NCBI GenBank assembly: GCA_029567195.1
Contig: JAKQLJ010000023.1
Location: 4,626-68,625 of the forward strand
Direction of reading: 5' to 3'
Length of the DNA stretch: 64,000 bases
DNA from: a bacterium
GTDB taxonomy: Bacteria > Patescibacteriota > Minisyncoccia > Moranbacterales > UBA2206
The notes under the pieces were generated by a model. It saw only the letters and a list, made by a program, of their open reading frames with translations, was not told the origin of the DNA and ran no database searches. Below, in pieces: positions 3,053-63,534 of the stretch; positions within the stretch are counted from its first letter, which is position 1; the number at the start of each line of letters is the position of its first letter. Position numbers and translations under genes: made by a program.

Positions 3053-4384
3053 TTATTTGTATATAATCATTTGGTCAATGGCGACCTTACTGTCAACTCC
3101 GATTTTTCCCACTAATGATTTAGAAGTGCCAAGATAGAGATTGGAACCAAAATATGGATCATGAACAATATAATCTTTTTTATCTTTGCCGGTGACCACC
3201 ACATAGTGTCCTCCTCGGCCGTTGGTTTTTTTAATGTAAACTATGACAGGATTGCCTTTTTTAATTTCGCTGTCAATAGTGGACCATTTTATATTGCCAT
3301 GGGAAACGGAAGAAGAAAGGGAAATTCCAGGACTCCAGGTGGCTGGCCATTTGATAAGATCATAATAAAATATTTTTTCGCGGCACATTTTTCCCGGATC
3401 AGTGCTAGCTCCGTTTTTTTTGAAAACCATAGCGACAGAAGTGACGGCACAACCATAATCTTTCATAAGAGAAGAAGAATTTCCGATTTTTTTATTTCCC
3501 CAACGTGAATCTTTTTGGGAAAAATACCAGGAAGTAGAAGCCAAATTATCTTTGGGTTTGGGATATTTGCTTACACTGGCGCTGACTTCATCCAGGTTGC
3601 CGGCTTCGGAAAAATTGAAAAGTTCCTGTTTTTGTTCCTCCACTCGAGCCAAGAGTCCGCGGTATTTTTCTTCCTCTCCCTGTGTTTGAGTGAGAAGATT
3701 TTGCTTTTGCCGCTCGGTATATTGGAGGTCAGCTTTTTTATCCGCCAATTCTTCTTTGAGATCTAAATTTTTCTGCATATCTTCGTCCAACTCTTTTTTG
3801 TCGTTTTCCAGTTCGCTTTTTGATTTTTCAATATCTGATAGAATTTCGGAAACTTTCGCTCCGGATTGTTCCAGATAATCTGATTGACTGAGAGTTTCGG
3901 AAAAATCCTTATTTATGATTACCAGCCCTAAAATTCCCTGCTGGTCGTATTCATAATATGATTGCATTAGTCCGGTAAGAATCTTTTTCTGCACATTTAT
4001 GTTCGCTTCTTTTTCTTTTATTGCTTCCTCTAAGTTTTCAATTCTTTTAGTCAGTTCATCCAATTCTTTTTGAGTCAGCTGAAGCTTGCTGTGAGTCTCC
4101 ATTTTTTCCTGATTTATTGAGTTCACCTGAGCAGCCAAAGTGCTTTCTTGTTTGTCTTTGAGTTTTATAATGCTTTCATACATTTCCGCTTTTTTGTCCA
4201 ATTTCTTGCAGTCTTCCTCGCAGTCATCCTGCTTATCTTCATCATCAGGATAACTGGCCTTGCATTGATCCTCGCAGGATTCGGCTTGGGTATAATTTTT
4301 TTCCAGAGTAAGAAAAGCCATGGCTAAAATGCCGAGGAATATCAATGAAAATAAGCTTATTTTATTTTTATCTTTTTTTATCAT
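3053..4384 (-). CDS. Secreted/membrane-anchored coiled-coil protein with a C-terminal C39-like cysteine peptidase domain (PcsB-like architecture, putative cell-wall hydrolase)
   Basis: N-terminal TM/signal segment, then about 200 aa of heptad-rich Glu/Lys/Leu sequence. The C-terminus YFSQKDSRWGN...DYGCAVTSVAMV...GGHYVVVTG...VHDP resembles the Peptidase_C39_2 Cys/His arrangement. Confidence 0.6.
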   Translation of the reverse strand: MIKKDKNKISLFSLIFLGILAMAFLTLEKNYTQAESCEDQCKASYPDDEDKQDDCEEDCKKLDKKAEMYESIIKLKDKQESTLAAQVNSINQEKMETHSKLQLTQKELDELTKRIENLEEAIKEKEANINVQKKILTGLMQSYYEYDQQGILGLVIINKDFSETLSQSDYLEQSGAKVSEILSDIEKSKSELENDKKELDEDMQKNLDLKEELADKKADLQYTERQKQNLLTQTQGEEEKYRGLLARVEEQKQELFNFSEAGNLDEVSASVSKYPKPKDNLASTSWYFSQKDSRWGNKKIGNSSSLMKDYGCAVTSVAMVFKKNGASTDPGKMCREKIFYYDLIKWPATWSPGISLSSSVSHGNIKWSTIDSEIKKGNPVIVYIKKTNGRGGHYVVVTGKDKKDYIVHDPYFGSNLYLGTSKSLVGKIGVDSKVAIDQMIIYK

Positions 4385-4392
4385 TTTTTATC

Positions 4393-5946
4393 CTATAAAG
4401 ACAAGGCTTTTTTTATTCTTTTTATGCTTTCCTCTTTACCCAGGACCCAGGCTACTTCAAAAGGCGAAGGTGATTTCTGCTGCCCGGTGAGAGCGGCCCG
4501 AAGTGGCCAAAGCAAATCTCCTTTTTTATCTCCGGCTGCTTCCACTAGCAGTTTCTCCAAATTTTCTTTAGTCCACAAAGGATCAGAAATTTCAGTTAAA
4601 ATATCCAATGATTTTTGAAGCGATGCTTTCAAATTTTCATCGCTCATTTCTTTCCAACGCAAAAGATTTTTATCATAATCTATGTCGCTTACAAAAAAGA
4701 AAATATTGTTCTCCCCCACTCCGGATAAATTTATCAGGCGATCGCGTTCAACGGTTAAGACTTTTTTAATATAATCTCCTTTTTCTTTGTTGTTCTTTCT
4801 TTGTTGTTCTTTGTCCCAGATATTATAAAATTCTTTCTGTCGCCAAAATTCCAATGATCGTTCATAGAGTTCATCAATGGATAATTTTTTGATCCATTGG
4901 GAATTTATCCAGTCGAGTTTTTGGATATCAAATACCGCGCCGCCTTTGTGGACGCAGGAAAGATCAAATTTTTGAGTGAGTTCTTCGAGGGTAAAAATTT
5001 CCTGAGTCGATCCTTCGCCTGGATTCCACCCTAAAAATATTACAAAATTAATGATAGCTTCCTTTAGATAACCTTTCTTGATGTAGTCTTCCACAGCCAC
5101 GTCACCTTGTCTTTTGGAAAGTTTTGATCTGTCGGTGTTGAGAAGCAGGGGCACATGGGCGAATTGCGGCGGTTCCCAGCCAAAATATCTATATAGAATC
5201 AAGTGTTTGGGAGCGCTGGAAAGCCATTCTTCTCCGCGGATGACGTGGGTTATTTTCATTTCGTGGTCGTCAACGACATTGGCCAAATGATAGGTGGGAT
5301 AGCCGTCGGATTTCAAAAGCACCTGGTCGTCAACAAGATTAGTATCAAATTTTACTTTTCCTCTTATAATATCATCAAATTCAATCATTTCATCTTTGGG
5401 CATCTTGAGGCGGATAGTATAAGGGCAATTACTTTTAAGTTTTTTATTCACTTCTTCGGGAGTTACGTTCCGCAGACAATATTGGTCGTAGATTGGCGGC
5501 TGTTTCTTGGCCTGTTGATCACGTCTCATCTCTTCCAGTCTTTCCGGTTCGCAGAAACAATAATAAGCGTGGCCGTCTTTCACCAATGTTTCCGCATATT
5601 TTTTATAAACTTCCAGTTTTTCTGATTGGATGTATGGTCCATACTCCCCTATCTCTATGATTCCTTTATAAGATTTTGAATCATAGAATTTGGAATTTGG
5701 AATTTGGAATTTGGAATCTTTTTGAAAAACTCCTTCTGTATAATTAACATCAGCCCAATTTAAAACGTTTATCAAACTTTCAAGCGCGCCCGTAACAAAT
5801 CTTTTTTGATCAGTATCTTCTATGCGCAACACAAAATCACCGTCATTTTTTTTGGCGAATAAGTAATCATATAAAGCGCTTCGGAAATTTCCGATATGCA
5901 TAAATCCGGTTGGTGATGGCGCAAATCTAACGCGTGGTTTTGTCAT
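4393..5946 (-). CDS. gltX: Glutamyl-tRNA synthetase
   Basis: RFAPSPTGFMHIGNFRSAL (HIGH region), LRIEDTD, and KLSKRQG (KMSKS region). Confidence 0.93.
   Translation of the reverse strand: MTKPRVRFAPSPTGFMHIGNFRSALYDYLFAKKNDGDFVLRIEDTDQKRFVTGALESLINVLNWADVNYTEGVFQKDSKFQIPNSKFYDSKSYKGIIEIGEYGPYIQSEKLEVYKKYAETLVKDGHAYYCFCEPERLEEMRRDQQAKKQPPIYDQYCLRNVTPEEVNKKLKSNCPYTIRLKMPKDEMIEFDDIIRGKVKFDTNLVDDQVLLKSDGYPTYHLANVVDDHEMKITHVIRGEEWLSSAPKHLILYRYFGWEPPQFAHVPLLLNTDRSKLSKRQGDVAVEDYIKKGYLKEAIINFVIFLGWNPGEGSTQEIFTLEELTQKFDLSCVHKGGAVFDIQKLDWINSQWIKKLSIDELYERSLEFWRQKEFYNIWDKEQQRKNNKEKGDYIKKVLTVERDRLINLSGVGENNIFFFVSDIDYDKNLLRWKEMSDENLKASLQKSLDILTEISDPLWTKENLEKLLVEAAGDKKGDLLWPLRAALTGQQKSPSPFEVAWVLGKEESIKRIKKALSL
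5686..5717. repeat. Heptamer tandem array (gaatttg x4.5) inside gltX
   Basis: gaatttg gaatttg gaatttg gaatttg gaatc. On the coding strand it encodes SKFQIPNSKF within an insertion between conserved blocks. Confidence 0.85.
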
Positions 5947-18682: not shown

Positions 18683-19672
18683 ATGAAGAATAATTTTTGG
18701 TTAAAATTAAAAAAGCCAATTTTGGCTTTGGCTCCAATGGCCGGCATCACTGACAGCGCTTTCCGGCAAATTTGCCGGAAATATGGAGCCGATGTTACTT
18801 ACAGCGAAATGGCCAGCGTTTCAGCGCTGTTTTTTAAGCCCCAAAAAACCTTGGAATTAGTGAGGTTTAATAAATCAGAACGGCCTTATGTGGTCCAGCT
18901 ATTTGGTAAGAATCCAAAGCATTTTGCCGCATCCGCTAAAATTATAACTGAAAAAATCAAACCGGATGGCATTGATATCAACTTTGGCTGTCCGGCTAAA
19001 AAAGTTTTCGGTCATGGCAGTGGTTGCGCCCTTATGCCGCAAAAAGAACTGGCTAGGGAGATAATTTCAGCGGTTTGTGAAAACACTTCTCTTCCGGTTT
19101 CCATTAAAATTAGAGCTGGAATAAAAGATATGACTGCTTTTGATTTTATTAAAAATACGGCTGATCTTCCCTACTCTGCCATCATGGTTCACGGTCGGAC
19201 ATACGAAGGCAGTTTTTCAGGAGAGGTGGATTTTTCCATTTGCGAAAAGATAAAAAAAATGGTTCCGGAAAAAATTGTTCTTGGAAATGGCGGGATCATG
19301 ACATCCGAAAACGCTAAAAATATTTTGAAGCGCTATCCTCTGCTTGATGGTTTGGGGATCGCCCGCGGGGCATGGGGAAGGCCGTGGATATTTGAAGAAA
19401 TTAGAGGAATTATAAATGTAGGGACGGATCTTGTATCCGTCCAAAAAAGGACAGACACAAGGTCTGTCCCTACAAAGTATTATTTTTCAAAAACCAAAAA
19501 AATAATGCTTGAGCACGCCAAATTGATATATAAAGACAAAGGAAAAACAGGATTATTTGAAATCAGGAAACATATGTGCTGGTATATTCGCGGCTTTCCG
19601 GGTGCGGCAGAAATGAGAAAAAAATTGGTAATGGCGAAAAGTTTAAAGGAAATTATTGATATTTTAAATTAA
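18683..19672 (+). CDS. dusB: tRNA-dihydrouridine synthase
   Basis: LAPMAGITDSAFRQICRKYGADVTYSEM, INFGCPAKKV, and GIARGAWGRPWIF. Confidence 0.88.
   Translation: MKNNFWLKLKKPILALAPMAGITDSAFRQICRKYGADVTYSEMASVSALFFKPQKTLELVRFNKSERPYVVQLFGKNPKHFAASAKIITEKIKPDGIDINFGCPAKKVFGHGSGCALMPQKELAREIISAVCENTSLPVSIKIRAGIKDMTAFDFIKNTADLPYSAIMVHGRTYEGSFSGEVDFSICEKIKKMVPEKIVLGNGGIMTSENAKNILKRYPLLDGLGIARGAWGRPWIFEEIRGIINVGTDLVSVQKRTDTRSVPTKYYFSKTKKIMLEHAKLIYKDKGKTGLFEIRKHMCWYIRGFPGAAEMRKKLVMAKSLKEIIDILN
19418..19473. repeat. 56-nt double-hairpin palindrome inserted in frame in dusB
   Basis: gtagggacggatcttgtatccgtcc aaaaaa ggacagacacaaggtctgtccctac. These are two inverted copies of a 25-nt hairpin unit. It encodes VGTDLVSVQKRTDTRSVPT. 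Confidence 0.85.
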
Positions 19673-20778: not shown

Positions 20779-20815
20779 GATAAGACTATGAACTCAATTT
20801 AAATAATCTCATTTC

Positions 20816-20913
20816 TGTCATTCCCGTGTAAACGGGAATCCAGTAAATAAGCCAGGATTTCAGACTAGATTCCCGCCTGCCTGCCAGTAGGCATGGCTTT
20901 CGCGGGAATGACA
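20816..20913. repeat. GC-rich composite palindromic repeat, copy 3
   Basis: tgtcattcccgtgtaaacgggaatcca...ctagattcccgcctgcctgccagtaggcatggctttcgcgggaatgaca. Terminal inverted repeats are tgtcattcccg and cgggaatgaca. Confidence 0.8.
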
Positions 20914-20985
20914 ATTAAGCGCAAAGTTTTAGTCATATAAAGGCTTATTATAAATATAAAGTAAGATTTAATTAAAATCAGCTAT

Positions 20986-25678: not shown

Positions 25679-25716
25679 ATCTCTATAATACAACAAAACA
25701 GAAAATAAATTTAGAT

Positions 25717-25755
25717 AAAAAAAACCAGCCAGTCGGGCAAATGCCTGACTGGCTG
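25717..25755 (-). terminator. Intrinsic terminator of the NUDIX gene
   Basis: The minus strand reads cagccagtcaggcatttgcccgactggctgg followed by ttttttttatc. Confidence 0.8.
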
Positions 25756-25763
25756 TTACTCTG

Positions 25764-26417
25764 CTACTTCAGGAGTTCGGGATACTCCATTTTGATGATG
25801 GCCAGTGCACTGAGCGTAAAGCAACAGTAGAGCTTGCCTTCCTTGCGGAGCTCAATCAACTCTTCCCAGGTGAACCACTCGACTCCCTTCATGAGCTGGT
25901 CGTTCTGGTCGGCGGTGAGGCCGGAGGAACGACTCATATCGATCTGGCCGACAACGAAATCGGTCAGATGAGGAGAGAAAGCTGTGTTGTCGCAGAACCG
26001 GCCGAGATTTCGAGCCGAAACGACAACACTTTCCGTCTCTTCCTTGGCTTCCCGAATGGCTGCCTCATGCCCGGATTCCCTCATCTTGGGGAATCCTCGC
26101 GGGATCTCATAGGAGAACCGACCGAGTTCCGAGAGATTGATGTTCGGAAAATTTCTGGCGTAAGCTTCCTGGTCGTTCGTTTGGGGACGCCAGACCTTCT
26201 TCAGTCCGACTCGTCCTTTCTCGTCGACCGGTAGGAAAACTCCCCCGCCCTTTTCTGCTCGGATGGCCTGGTCATAGAGAACCTTGTCTCCCTCAGGTGA
26301 AACCCACATAACGTGAACAACCTTGCAGCCGAGTTTGGGATTCTCGATTACCGAATCGTCTCCAGGCTTCCACCCAGCGTTTGCTTTTTTTGCATCAAAC
26401 ATTTCTAATCTGTTCAT
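25764..26417 (-). CDS. NUDIX hydrolase (ADP-ribose pyrophosphatase-like), clearly G+C-richer than its flanks
   Basis: The Nudix box GFPKMRESGHEAAIREAKEETES fits G-x5-E-x7-REUxEExGU. Confidence 0.85.
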   Translation of the reverse strand: MNRLEMFDAKKANAGWKPGDDSVIENPKLGCKVVHVMWVSPEGDKVLYDQAIRAEKGGGVFLPVDEKGRVGLKKVWRPQTNDQEAYARNFPNINLSELGRFSYEIPRGFPKMRESGHEAAIREAKEETESVVVSARNLGRFCDNTAFSPHLTDFVVGQIDMSRSSGLTADQNDQLMKGVEWFTWEELIELRKEGKLYCCFTLSALAIIKMEYPELLK

Positions 26418-26567
26418 TTAACTCCCTCTCCTTACCGCCTCATTGCGGTAGGTAATGAAGTCAGGGGGTTTTCTTTTCGCGCCTCTTGCGCTAGCTTTCG
26501 GACCATCCAAAAGCAAGATAACCTTCCCATTTAGAAAGTACAGGCGTCCAATATTGCTGGACAGCAT
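26418..26567 (-). promoter_or_regulatory. Structured 5' leader of about 150 nt (riboswitch-like candidate) of the NUDIX gene
   Basis: mRNA-sense elements are the hairpin GUCCAGCAAUAUUGGAC (26546-26562), the core CUAAAUGGGAAGGUUAUC..GAUGGUCCGAAAG (the GGUCCGAAAG core lies within 26495-26505), and the hairpin CCUACCGC-AAUGAG-GCGGUAAGG (26430-26452). The 3' arm of the last hairpin overlaps the SD AAGGAGAGGGAG. Confidence 0.4.
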
Positions 26568-26596
26568 AGTTTAGCATAAATTTAGCTGTCTGTCAA
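26568..26596 (-). promoter_or_regulatory. Sigma70-type promoter of the NUDIX gene
   Basis: Minus strand TTGACA (26591-26596), 17 nt, TAAACT (26568-26573). Confidence 0.55.
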
Positions 26597-26686
26597 ATGG
26601 AAAAGAGATTATTTTTTCAACAAAAAAAAGCTTATAAAAGCCATTTTTTGCTTAATAATTCCTAAAATTTTAAAAATCTTGTTCTA

Positions 26687-27670
26687 TTAGTAACGATAGC
26701 CAGTCTCTCTTTTTATTTTATTGGCTTCCCTTTGATGGTTTTCAGCGGATTTTTTATCGCCTATTGCTTGGTAAATGTTACTTAATGTCTGGTGGGATTT
26801 TAATATGGCATTGGAATAATTTAATTTTTCGGCTCTTTTCAGAGCTTCGTTGGCCAAAACCAAGGCTTTATCAATATTATCCGGCAAAAATCTTCTTACA
26901 CCTCCTTTGCCGGGGATACTGGTGATTGAGGCATAAGAATTGGCAGCTTCAATCATTGCTCTTGCAGCATCATATTCATCTCCACTTTCTTCCAAGTGTT
27001 TTACATATTTTTGATAGTCTTCCGTTTTCTCTTTCGGTTTTAAATCTTTATTATAAGTAAGACCAAAAAGAATTTTTCCTTCTAAAACCTTATCGTTAAG
27101 TTCTCGGGCGGAGCTCAATGCTGATTTATTGTGCTCAATAGCCATCTGGGGATTTTTAGCGGCTGTGCCTTCCCATGTGGACAAATCGTGTATCGCGCGA
27201 GCAAAAACGGTTTTATCCTTAAGCTTTTTTTCATTTTCAGAAATTACGGTAAGCAATCGAAAAAAGCGCCCATGATCTTTTAAATGATATGCAACGCCCA
27301 TCATTTCATTGAGAATGTGTTCCGGAAGATCAGCTTCCGAAAGCCATTTGAAAACTTCCTGGCTATCGATATCTTCCGAACAGATGTTTTTTTCCGGACC
27401 AAATTTTTCGCCAAACAAAAGATCAAAACTATTCCGAAGGGAAATTAGGCCCTTTCCTTTTTCTCTTCTGTCGAGAACAATGCTTCTTATTTTTTGGGGA
27501 TCGGAAAGTATATCTTTTATCTCGTCTAAATTTTTATTTTTTAAGTTTTCTCCCAGGCTACCGATTAATTCAATAGAACTTTGTTCCGGGGCAGGCTTCC
27601 ATTTTTCTGCCGGATTTTGGATATAAAATTCTGGCGATTTTGGCATAATATTATAATAAAGATATTTCAA
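26687..27670 (-). CDS. Hypothetical protein with TPR-like helical repeats at the C-terminus
   Basis: Long intact ORF. The C-terminal part is helical-repeat-like (ALVLANEALKRAEKLNYSNAILKSHQTLSNIYQAIGDKKSAENH). Confidence 0.5.
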   Translation of the reverse strand: MKYLYYNIMPKSPEFYIQNPAEKWKPAPEQSSIELIGSLGENLKNKNLDEIKDILSDPQKIRSIVLDRREKGKGLISLRNSFDLLFGEKFGPEKNICSEDIDSQEVFKWLSEADLPEHILNEMMGVAYHLKDHGRFFRLLTVISENEKKLKDKTVFARAIHDLSTWEGTAAKNPQMAIEHNKSALSSARELNDKVLEGKILFGLTYNKDLKPKEKTEDYQKYVKHLEESGDEYDAARAMIEAANSYASITSIPGKGGVRRFLPDNIDKALVLANEALKRAEKLNYSNAILKSHQTLSNIYQAIGDKKSAENHQREANKIKRETGYRY

Positions 27671-33293: not shown

Positions 33294-33644
33294 ATGAGTT
33301 CATTGAAAGTTGTTGTAGCAGTTGTAGTTTTTTTGGCAACGGTTTTTTTCTCTGGTGTCGGAGTGTCGGAAGCTGGCAGGAAGTTTGATCCACAGAACAA
33401 TTTCCGGCATGATGCTTCCACCAAAACCGGAATGGACAGAGACGAGGCCAACAATTCGGTCCGGGGGCCAAACGGTTCTGAAAAGGCGCCCAAGGTTCCA
33501 AGCAAGAAGGCTCCGGTTATCATTAATGATTCACCGGGCGTTCGCAAGATTCAGATTGGAGACGAACCGGGCGTTCGGAAGGTTCCCATCCATGACGATA
33601 ACCAAAACTGTCAGCAGTTCGTTCCGAACAACTGCTGCCAGTAG
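33294..33644 (+). CDS. Orphan secreted protein P1 (116 aa) of the G+C-rich island
   Basis: SD aaaggaggattttATG. Signal peptide ..FFSGVGVSEA. Tandem PGVRK(I/V) motif. C-terminal Cys cluster NCQQFVPNNCCQ. A strong terminator follows. Confidence 0.7.
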   Translation: MSSLKVVVAVVVFLATVFFSGVGVSEAGRKFDPQNNFRHDASTKTGMDRDEANNSVRGPNGSEKAPKVPSKKAPVIINDSPGVRKIQIGDEPGVRKVPIHDDNQNCQQFVPNNCCQ

Positions 33645-33646
33645 CC

Positions 33647-33690
33647 TTTGTAACCTTGGGGTGTAAAAACCCCAAGGTTACAAAATTAAT
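33647..33690 (+). terminator. Hairpin terminator after P1
   Basis: tttgtaaccttgggg-tgtaaaaa-ccccaaggttacaaa, a 15-bp perfect stem. Confidence 0.7.
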
Positions 33691-33724
33691 TTAAAATTCA
33701 ATATCAGTTGTTTTTTATACTATA

Positions 33725-33753
33725 TTGACAACATAATATTTTAGGAGTATAAT
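33725..33753 (+). promoter_or_regulatory. Consensus sigma70-type promoter for P2
   Basis: TTGACA (33725-33730), 17 nt, TATAAT (33748-33753). An AT-rich leader of about 170 nt follows, containing the hairpin ggctggaatgtttccagcc (33873-33891). Confidence 0.65.
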
Positions 33754-38370: not shown

Positions 38371-38490
38371 TGTCATTCCCGCGCAGGCCATGCCTACTGG
38401 CAGGCAGGCCTGCCTGCCAGTAGGCAGGCGAAAATCCAGTCTTCATAATCTAGCTTGTTTTCTGGATTCCCAATCAAGTTGGGAATGACA
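38371..38490. repeat. GC-rich composite palindromic repeat, copy 4
   Basis: tgtcattcccgcgcaggccatgcctactggcaggcaggcctgcctgccagtaggcaggcg...ctggattcccaatcaagttgggaatgaca. It shares termini and ctgcctgccagtaggca with copy 3. Confidence 0.8.
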
Positions 38491-38560
38491 TCAGGAAGAA
38501 ACTTAATATGAGTTCTCTTACCCTAAAATTATAGCATATTTATGCTAATTTATAAAAAAT

Positions 38561-63114: not shown

Positions 63115-63150
63115 ATATTGGTCAAATTATCAGCAATTTCAAATATTTAT

Positions 63151-63534
63151 CAAGGCAAATCTATAAGCCGGATTCTGTCAAAAGCAGTCATTTATCTGGG
63201 ATGATGATTACTCATCACCTCAAGCGGCACTTCCCATATTTACGTAAAATACAGGACACGACCTTGCATTCTGGTAAGGATTTAGCCGTTTCACTCCCGC
63301 ACTAACTTTACGCTGGCACTAACGTGCCAAAAAAAAGCGTAAAATTAGTGCGGGACTACGCCCTACTTTTCAATAGAGCGCCCATAATAATTTCTTATTA
63401 TGGCGTCTCTGCTCGCACCTCTGTCCTTGCGGACGACGGGTGTTACCCGCTACCATTGTCCCGCCATAAGCGAAACTAAATGTCCGGACTTTCCTCCCCG
63501 ACTTTACGTCGGGGCAACTGCCCAATTTGCCTTG
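63151..63534 (-). ncRNA. rnpB: RNase P RNA (bacterial type A)
   Basis: The minus strand contains the P3 hairpin ccccgacgtaaagtcgggg followed by GAGGAAAGTCCGGAC (CR-I). It also has gggagtgaaacggc and ACAGAATCCGGCTTATAG (CR-V). P1 pairs caaggcaaat with atttgccttg at the two ends. Confidence 0.9.

Follow-up and report, generated by a model that had tools for sequence, protein, structure and literature searches.

All subtypes of the ykkC riboswitch family have a near-identical three-hairpin consensus (PMC7266159, PMC5912903), and the nucleotides they share form tertiary contacts (PMC5912903). One of them, subtype 2c, responds to (d)ADP and (d)CDP, lies upstream of NUDIX and HAD genes, and consists of predicted ON switches (PMC7266159). 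A ykkC-like core had been proposed, from the DNA alone, for an untranslated leader of about 145 nt upstream of a NUDIX hydrolase gene on the minus strand of contig JAKQLJ010000023.1, which belongs to a Patescibacteriota bacterium of the Moranbacterales (assembly GCA_029567195.1). The window analyzed here is the whole 64,000-nt stretch from positions 4,626 to 68,625 of that contig, and coordinates given without a locus name refer to this stretch. The leader belongs neither to ykkC nor to any other family in Rfam. It represents a new family among elements of a known kind, the regulatory leaders and riboswitch candidates that mask the Shine-Dalgarno (SD) sequence. On balance, it is probably an undescribed, conserved cis-acting leader RNA of nucleotide-sugar clusters (dTDP-deoxyhexose type) in Moranbacteria-like bacteria of the candidate phyla radiation (CPR), with a riboswitch-like form of translational control by SD masking.

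Homologs of the TPR-domain protein encoded just upstream of the leader were sought to test horizontal acquisition, and three of the resulting loci (L036, L037, and L038) were taken for comparison; the TPR family as a whole comprised 67 clusters at E ≤ 1e-10. A search of these loci with a model derived solely from the window leader found one match in each: L036 at 1667-1817 (68.1 bits, E = 1e-13), L037 at 4977-5127 (25.7 bits, E = 2e-4), and L038 at 3528-3673 (24.6 bits, E = 3e-4). Every match lies in an intergenic region directly 3' of the TPR gene and on the same strand, and ends at the start codon of the next gene. Promoters lie at the position corresponding to that of the window promoter before all three copies, reading TTGACA..TAGAAT in L036, TTGACA-17-TAAACT in L037, and TTGACA-17-TATATT in L038; in L037 and L038 the promoter overlaps the TPR stop codon, and the −10 box of L037 is identical to the TAAACT of the window. 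The cost of opening the ribosome-binding site (RBS) was 14.0, 16.0, 11.1, and 12.2 kcal/mol in the four copies. No Rfam family (Rfam 15, 4,227 families) matched any of the four copies.

Expressing the comparison as a model-fitted alignment of the four copies, 93.4% of cells were paired and 28 of 49 pairs had changed on both sides, values reached by 0 of 500 shuffles, while slid registers gave 38 to 54% paired cells and 3 to 8 pairs changed on both sides. Support was found in all five helices, with both-sided changes in 6 of 8 pairs of helix 1, in 7 of 11, 5 of 9, and 1 of 4 pairs of helices 2 to 4, and in 9 of 17 pairs of helix 5. The covariation sought among leader homologs was obtained, from copies at TPR-syntenic loci. 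Because an alignment fitted to a model leans toward that model, two independent checks were made. MAFFT followed by RNAalifold, in which the alignment was not model fitted, yielded 11 compensatory pairs and again showed helices P1 and P3 and the hairpin at the SD, and each copy folded singly adopted the same five-helix shape of 5' hairpin, three-way junction, and SD hairpin. The structure is conserved and covarying, and the RBS is kept paired, in all four genomes, which supports the part of the original prediction that described a riboswitch-like, structured, SD-sequestering leader.

Conservation was not confined to the helices. Among core columns, 46% of the unpaired ones were invariant versus 24% of the paired ones, a difference for which four sequences are too few to give significance. 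The conserved unpaired elements are the CUA motif at J2/3, the GAAAAG motif at J3/1, and the SD-hairpin loop AAUKAG, which reads AAUGAG, AAUGAG, AAUUAG, and AAAUAG across the four copies; the P2 loop, too, has a conserved GG on its 3' side, at the end of the loop. Positions of these elements in the window, along with those of the surrounding genes and of the features compared at other loci, are collected in Table 1.

Table 1. Coordinates of the leader, its structural elements, the associated genes, and the leaders compared
Feature	Position	Strand	Details
Sigma-70-type promoter	26568..26596	-	-35 TTGACA 26596-26591, 17-nt spacer, TG 26576-26575, -10 TAAACT 26573-26568
5'-terminal hairpin	26546..26562	-	GUCCAG-CAAUA-UUGGAC; minimum-free-energy folds; family helix 1
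Three-way junction, candidate sensor domain	26464..26528	-	Family helices 2-4
P1	26528-26515 with 26475-26464	-	GGG/GGUU/UCUU paired with AAGA/AACC/CCC
P2	26514-26494	-	GCUUUUGGA-UGG-UCCGAAAGC
J2/3	26493-26492	-	UA; conserved motif CUA 26494-26492
P3	26491-26479	-	GCGC-AAGAG-GCGC
J3/1	26478-26476	-	GAA; conserved motif GAAAAG 26478-26473
SD-sequestering hairpin	26419..26463	-	Core CCUACCGC-AAUGAG-GCGGUAAGG plus outer UGACUUC/GGAGUUA; directly 3' of P1; family helix 5
Shine-Dalgarno region	26422..26433	-	AAGGAGAGGGAG; NUDIX start codon 26417-26415
Upstream TPR-domain gene, syntenic anchor	26687..27670	-	Leader 3' of its homolog in 4/4 genomes examined
Controlled gene, first behind the window leader: 217-aa two-domain NUDIX enzyme	25764..26417	-	Pfam NUDIX E 6e-8; AlphaFold model pLDDT 88; Foldseek E ~1e-9
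Intrinsic terminator closing the NUDIX unit	25718..25755	-	14-bp stem and 8-U run; inverted repeat I3 25726-25739 / 25742-25755
First gene behind leader: NDP-hexose 2,3-dehydratase	L038:3674-4291		PF03559
First gene behind leader: 161-aa protein	L036:1809-2294		No detectable family
First gene behind leader: 399-aa protein	L037:5128-6327		No detectable family
Uhrbacteria NUDIX leader copies	L001:2914-2994, L002:2913-2994, L009:2860-2943, L029:2929-3009, L033:1918-2003, L034:1925-2003		

In the window, the leader occupies intergenic DNA between the TPR and NUDIX genes. The TTGACA-17-TAAACT promoter assigned to it earlier is present, matching the consensus at 10 of 12 positions with a TG before the −10 box. 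Sites of comparable quality show an enrichment of about 4-fold in intergenic DNA (19 of 41 fall in the intergenic 12% of the window), indicating that the organism uses such promoters and making the promoter call credible. Transcription is predicted to start near 26561. Between the −10 box and the NUDIX ATG lie 150 nt, compared to mostly 6 to 90 nt for other promoter-gene pairs in the window, and the resulting transcription unit contains one gene with a terminator at its end. This unit is bracketed by a perfect direct repeat of 10 nt (CTAAATTTAT, minus strand), with copies 871 bp apart in the promoter spacer (26576-26585) and just past the terminator (25705-25714). The repeat may be due to chance, because four such 10-mer repeats occur in this AT-rich 1.7 kb; as an insertion boundary it was rejected, given that frequency and the conservation with L036 of the copy in the promoter spacer.

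The leader sequence had been quoted correctly, and the final hairpin that was said to overlap the SD is indeed there, extending to a helix of −16.6 kcal/mol that pairs with the SD region. In the window copy, 14.1 kcal/mol are needed to open the RBS, ranking second among 57 window genes with a median of 5.9 kcal/mol. The three-way junction that precedes this hairpin folds alone to −25.0 kcal/mol.

Genes behind the leader differ from locus to locus. At the NUDIX start codon in the window, M1 is invariant across 20 homologs, and the best Foldseek matches of the modeled protein (NudF, YffH, and a Bdellovibrio NDP-sugar hydrolase, where NDP is nucleoside diphosphate; TM score of ~0.6) point to an enzyme of the ADP-ribose pyrophosphatase, GDP-mannose hydrolase, or NDP-sugar hydrolase type. 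The NDP-hexose 2,3-dehydratase of L038 belongs to a family of Nudix-superfamily enzymes (PMC8987622), so that two of the four first genes encode Nudix-superfamily NDP-sugar enzymes. For the proteins behind the leader in L036 and L037, no identity emerged from Pfam, NCBIfam, PDB sequence search, or hhalign. Each of the four loci is a nucleotide-sugar cluster with DUF4012, RmlB-like dehydratase, RmlC/FdtA, RmlD-like, and NTP_transferase genes, and in L038 a distant homolog of the window NUDIX family lies upstream of the TPR gene (hhalign probability of 89%, E = 2e-6).

The gene following the leader is also GC-richer than its locus in every case, at 0.54 versus ~0.36 in the flanks of the window gene, 0.55 versus 0.44 in L036, 0.48 versus 0.41 in L037, and 0.48 versus 0.40 in L038. 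Differing genes behind a shared leader mean that the leader is resident at the locus while the downstream gene changes, and the position behind it may be a slot for gene exchange. Horizontal acquisition of the NUDIX gene had been part of the original prediction; such an arrangement is compatible with that acquisition, although the leader itself was not brought in together with the gene. In most other hosts, too, the GC content of NUDIX orthologs exceeds that of the flanking DNA. The possibility that the leader is a relic of a donor gene was rejected when six-frame tblastn against all loci returned noise (E > 2), and a phage or mobile origin was likewise rejected, as viral contigs contained neither relatives nor a copy of the leader. 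PADLOC gave no match for the window NUDIX protein.

A conserved leader upstream of similar NUDIX genes had been anticipated, but none was found in about 20 NUDIX orthologs, and three of the four leader copies precede other genes. Across 29 loci with relatives of the window NUDIX gene, blastn, nhmmer, and covariance model searches found no counterpart of the leader, and Rfam detected nothing upstream of the orthologs. The closest NUDIX relatives, at 52 to 55% identity, have open, A-rich ribosome-binding regions. The nearest proteins (L026:3001-3834, L028:3001-3840, L031:2001-2837, and L032:2001-2840) carry a C-terminal extension of ~60 aa with a zinc-ribbon-like CxxC...CxxC pattern, and their genes come first in an apparent operon that also encodes two proteins lacking a Pfam match (~270 and 445 to 470 aa) beside Metallophos genes.

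Some NUDIX orthologs have leaders of their own. Those of Candidatus Uhrbacteria share a conserved leader of ~80 nt with two hairpins, the second of which abuts the SD. Its promoter, an invariant TTGACC-17-TAAGGT, is fused with the terminator of a PP2C gene that lies upstream; 93.5% of alignment cells are paired, with both-sided changes in 9 of 23 pairs, values reached by 0 of 500 shuffles. With no Rfam match, this leader is a candidate for a second new RNA motif. Kinship between the Uhrbacteria and window leaders was rejected, as their covariance models did not match each other in either direction. By eye, clade-specific conserved blocks were seen upstream of two further sets of NUDIX orthologs: GGCUCCCUGCGGGG..GG.C.GGC..GCC.G in L003 (~2850-2970) and in L004 and L012 (~2850-2970), and, in Peribacteria, GUGCC..GGCAUUCGUYCGUUCACA in L005 (~2840-2930), L006 (~2870-2943), and L007 (~1730-1803).

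The resemblance to ykkC lies in an 11-mer, UGGUCCGAAAG at 26505-26495, which agrees with the block UGGUCCGAGAG of ykkC in 10 of its 11 positions. Matches within one mismatch were at chance level, with 3 found versus 1.45 expected and 19 of 100 shuffles as good. In the four copies the 11-mer reads UGGUCCGAAAG, GGGUCCGAAA, AGGCUCAAAAA, and AGGCUUAAAAA, forming the 3' arm of the covarying P2; because it varies as a stem arm, its likeness to a famous riboswitch proved coincidental here. The invariant ykkC blocks CUAGGGUUCCG, GGUCCGAGCG/GAG, UACACC, and AGGGA-AAAAGCCC-RGR were not found in the leader, where the only look-alike, that of the GGUCCGA block, was at chance level. At gathering thresholds, Rfam 15 detected only RNase P in the window, and the covariance model search that had been suggested against ykkC came back negative: with lax filters and E ≤ 10, positions 26380-26720 contained no ykkC, guanidine, phosphoribosyl pyrophosphate (PRPP), or guanosine tetraphosphate (ppGpp) family.

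A profile hidden Markov model was also built from 15 authentic ykkC-scaffold sequences in the Stockholm file of supplement 2 of PMC5912903, with four held out. The four held-out RNAs scored 62 to 88 bits (E from 1e-18 to 1e-26), and the same profile (nhmmer with --max) had no match in the leader at E ≤ 100; a ykkC-scaffold covariance model, R3, run with filters off, did not exceed 1.6 bits on the strand of the leader. The statement that subtype 2c senses nucleoside diphosphates and is Nudix associated was accurate (PMC7266159) but does not apply here. Only one of four leader copies precedes a NUDIX gene, unlike the consistent NUDIX/HAD link of that subtype. A divergent, 2c-like ykkC riboswitch that would control the NUDIX gene in response to nucleoside diphosphates is refuted by these comparisons of sequence and structure, and we give it almost no credence: the 11-mer and the NUDIX association of subtype 2c speak for it, while the Rfam, positive-control-backed profile, and covariance model searches, the chance level and stem position of the 11-mer, a different helix topology, and three copies before other genes all speak against it. 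Subtype 2c RNAs may act through terminators, and the window leader has none.

A mechanism can be proposed for the leader as an SD-masking regulator. It would be transcribed from its own sigma-70-type promoter, and its 5' hairpin, by analogy with other 5' stem-loops, may protect the 5' end of the mRNA. The SD hairpin directly after P1 would hold downstream translation low by default, and binding of something at the three-way junction could release or tighten it. The binder would most likely be a metabolite of an NDP-sugar pathway, with a protein as the next most likely candidate. The genes under control would then be the NUDIX NDP-sugar pyrophosphatase in the window, the NDP-hexose 2,3-dehydratase in L038, and the proteins without an assigned function in L036 and L037. 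A more specific version, in which a new class of riboswitch uses the junction as its aptamer for a nucleotide-sugar metabolite (for example, dTDP-4-keto-6-deoxyglucose, dTDP-rhamnose, or another dTDP- or NDP-hexose) and gates translation of NDP-sugar enzymes in CPR bacteria, is doubtful at present. To our knowledge, no NDP-sugar-sensing riboswitch has been validated, and none is described in Rfam 15 or in the literature searched.

Several observations weigh against the reading as an SD-masking regulatory leader. The four copies represent about three independent lineages, because L037 and L038 are 82% identical, and their constant position beside the TPR gene in part reflects the use of that gene to find the loci. 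Leader DNA is no more alike among copies (identity of 0.59 to 0.68) than the adjoining TPR coding DNA (0.63 to 0.68), and the strongest covariation figures are those from the model-fitted alignment. Two of the four first genes are without known function, and because the sign of regulation is expected to differ between a hydrolase and a biosynthetic enzyme, the loci offer no single ligand logic. Fold energy alone proves little: the leader has a z-score of −4.0 versus shuffles, yet ranks 76th of 1,230 among the genome's own 156-nt windows, where its z-score is unremarkable, and the center of the NUDIX coding sequence (25897-26052) is as strongly folded on both strands (z-scores of −4.4 sense and −5.4 antisense; −62.7 and −69.5 kcal/mol), so strong z-scores are not peculiar to the leader but occur in this GC-rich gene too. 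As for switching, the SD was freed in 0 of 76,798 suboptimal folds of the window copy within 6 kcal/mol, the strongest competitor for the 5' arm of the SD hairpin reaches −7.0 versus −16.6 kcal/mol, and no alternative (anti-sequestor) helix of at least 4 bp is conserved across the four copies. A thermodynamic switch was rejected on these grounds. The layout had been called a classic translational OFF switch; its SD helix is present, but the competing pairing that would complete it was not found, and the junction and SD hairpin look like independent modules, not a balanced switch. Given no simple switch, the options left are a possible coupling in which P1 stacks on the SD helix next to it, a protein partner, or a static role.

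A static leader would stabilize the mRNA through its 5' hairpin and keep translation low and constant by SD masking, with nothing sensed. The lack of both a conserved alternative pairing and a low-energy SD-free fold fits such a role, as does the sequential, independent folding of junction and SD hairpin. Accessibility of the SD is also flat with temperature, its core having a mean unpaired probability of 0.21 at 4°C and 0.34 at 55°C, which together with the stability of the helix led to rejection of an RNA thermometer. Pure damping, however, needs no three-way junction with junction and loop bases more conserved than its stems, and conservation of the AAUKAG loop and GAAAAG junction despite turnover of the stems would go unexplained; we consider a static role a serious alternative, though not the probable one. 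If the junction were instead the operator for an RNA-binding protein, perhaps the TPR product or an enzyme of the cluster, then the linkage to the TPR gene at all four loci and the conserved unpaired bases would both make sense, and the absence of an alternative-pairing switch is common in protein-operated leaders. That linkage is partly a product of how the loci were found, and the TPR protein has no recognizable RNA-binding domain (only TPR_12, below the Pfam threshold); we consider this candidate reading rather improbable.

Translation of the leader itself is another way in which the SD hairpin might be opened. The public record annotates a 49-aa coding sequence at 26567-26418 on the minus strand that fills the leader exactly, with a UAA stop abutting the NUDIX AUG, and a GGGAAGG resembling an SD lies 5 nt before an in-frame UUG; ribosomes translating this 49-codon open reading frame, or a 32-codon version from the internal UUG, could melt the hairpin on reaching the stop and couple the two genes. 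The ATG of the frame directly follows the −10 box, however, and so would be expected to fall outside the transcript. Among 5.8 billion proteins, the peptide has no match other than itself, and the frame is not conserved, L037 and L038 having stops in three frames and L036 having no stop before the AUG. An open 50-codon frame at this composition has an estimated chance of ~5%, and double substitutions in stems fit selection on RNA rather than on a peptide. A leader peptide is accordingly very improbable, and the annotated frame, like a 64-aa coding sequence annotated over the L037 leader (L037:4986-5180), is probably a gene-caller artifact over structured RNA, since neither is conserved. An SD-masking, riboswitch-like regulatory leader is the reading we retain.

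The genomes of CPR bacteria (Patescibacteria) are tiny, little is known of their regulation, and descriptions of structured cis-regulatory RNAs from them are very few. The leader provides a testable RNA candidate for this group, being ~145 nt long with defined helices, conserved junction bases, and a readout in SD masking. Its position before nucleotide-sugar genes could reveal how precursors of cell-envelope sugars are controlled, and if the aptamer proposal were true, it might be the first case of an NDP-sugar sensed by RNA.

Other features of the window lie apart from the leader. An intergenic repeat with long hairpins occurs at 20801-20956 on the plus strand and at 38377-38532 on the minus strand, ~17.5 kb apart, with a fold z-score of about −7; it reads UGUCAUUCCC..GGGAAUCCAG..AAGC.AG..AGACU.GAUU..CGCCUGCCU..CAGUAGGCAUGGC..CGCGGGA and could be an element like the repetitive extragenic palindromes or miniature inverted-repeat transposable elements. 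The RNase P RNA is of class A (63148-63533, minus strand, 127.6 bits) and has a promoter at 63610-63582 with a perfect 12 of 12 match to TTGACA-17-TATAAT; no tRNA gene was found across the 64-kb window. Near-perfect long hairpins at or near gene ends (521-676, 19345-19500, and 33593-33748, plus strand), with stems of 16 to 19 bp and z-scores of −8 to −11, look like strong intrinsic terminators.

Compared to the systems closest to it, the leader shares features with each. With the ykkC family (guanidine-I; 2a, ppGpp; 2b, PRPP; 2c, (d)ADP/(d)CDP; RF00442) it has in common a single 11-mer at 10 of 11 positions and, at one locus in four, a following NUDIX gene as in subtype 2c, while it lacks the invariant blocks of that family, differs in helix topology, and uses the 11-mer as a variable stem arm. 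The Uhrbacteria leader resembles it as a promoter-proximal, structured 5' untranslated region (UTR) of the same NUDIX family with covariation and an SD-adjacent hairpin, but is shorter, consists of two hairpins without a three-way junction, and has a hairpin that abuts the SD, whereas that of the window engulfs it.

JUMPStart/ops leaders belong to enterobacterial polysaccharide operons. Like these and the LoaP-type leader hairpins, the family described here forms a long 5' UTR before polysaccharide or nucleotide-sugar genes, and GGCGGUAA, which three copies contain, is similar to the ops core GGCGGTAG. L036, unlike the other copies, reads GGGAGCAA at those positions and compensates in the other arm, which places the constraint on RNA pairing and not on that sequence, so an ops-like element was rejected; the window unit, moreover, is a single gene with a terminator. 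Orphan and SD-sequestering translational riboswitches differ from the leader in that it has no match among the Rfam families, no conserved anti-sequestor pairing, and four copies, but they are like it in having a 5' UTR with its own promoter, a covarying multihelix junction with conserved unpaired bases, an SD helix directly after that junction, and a coherent metabolic cluster downstream.

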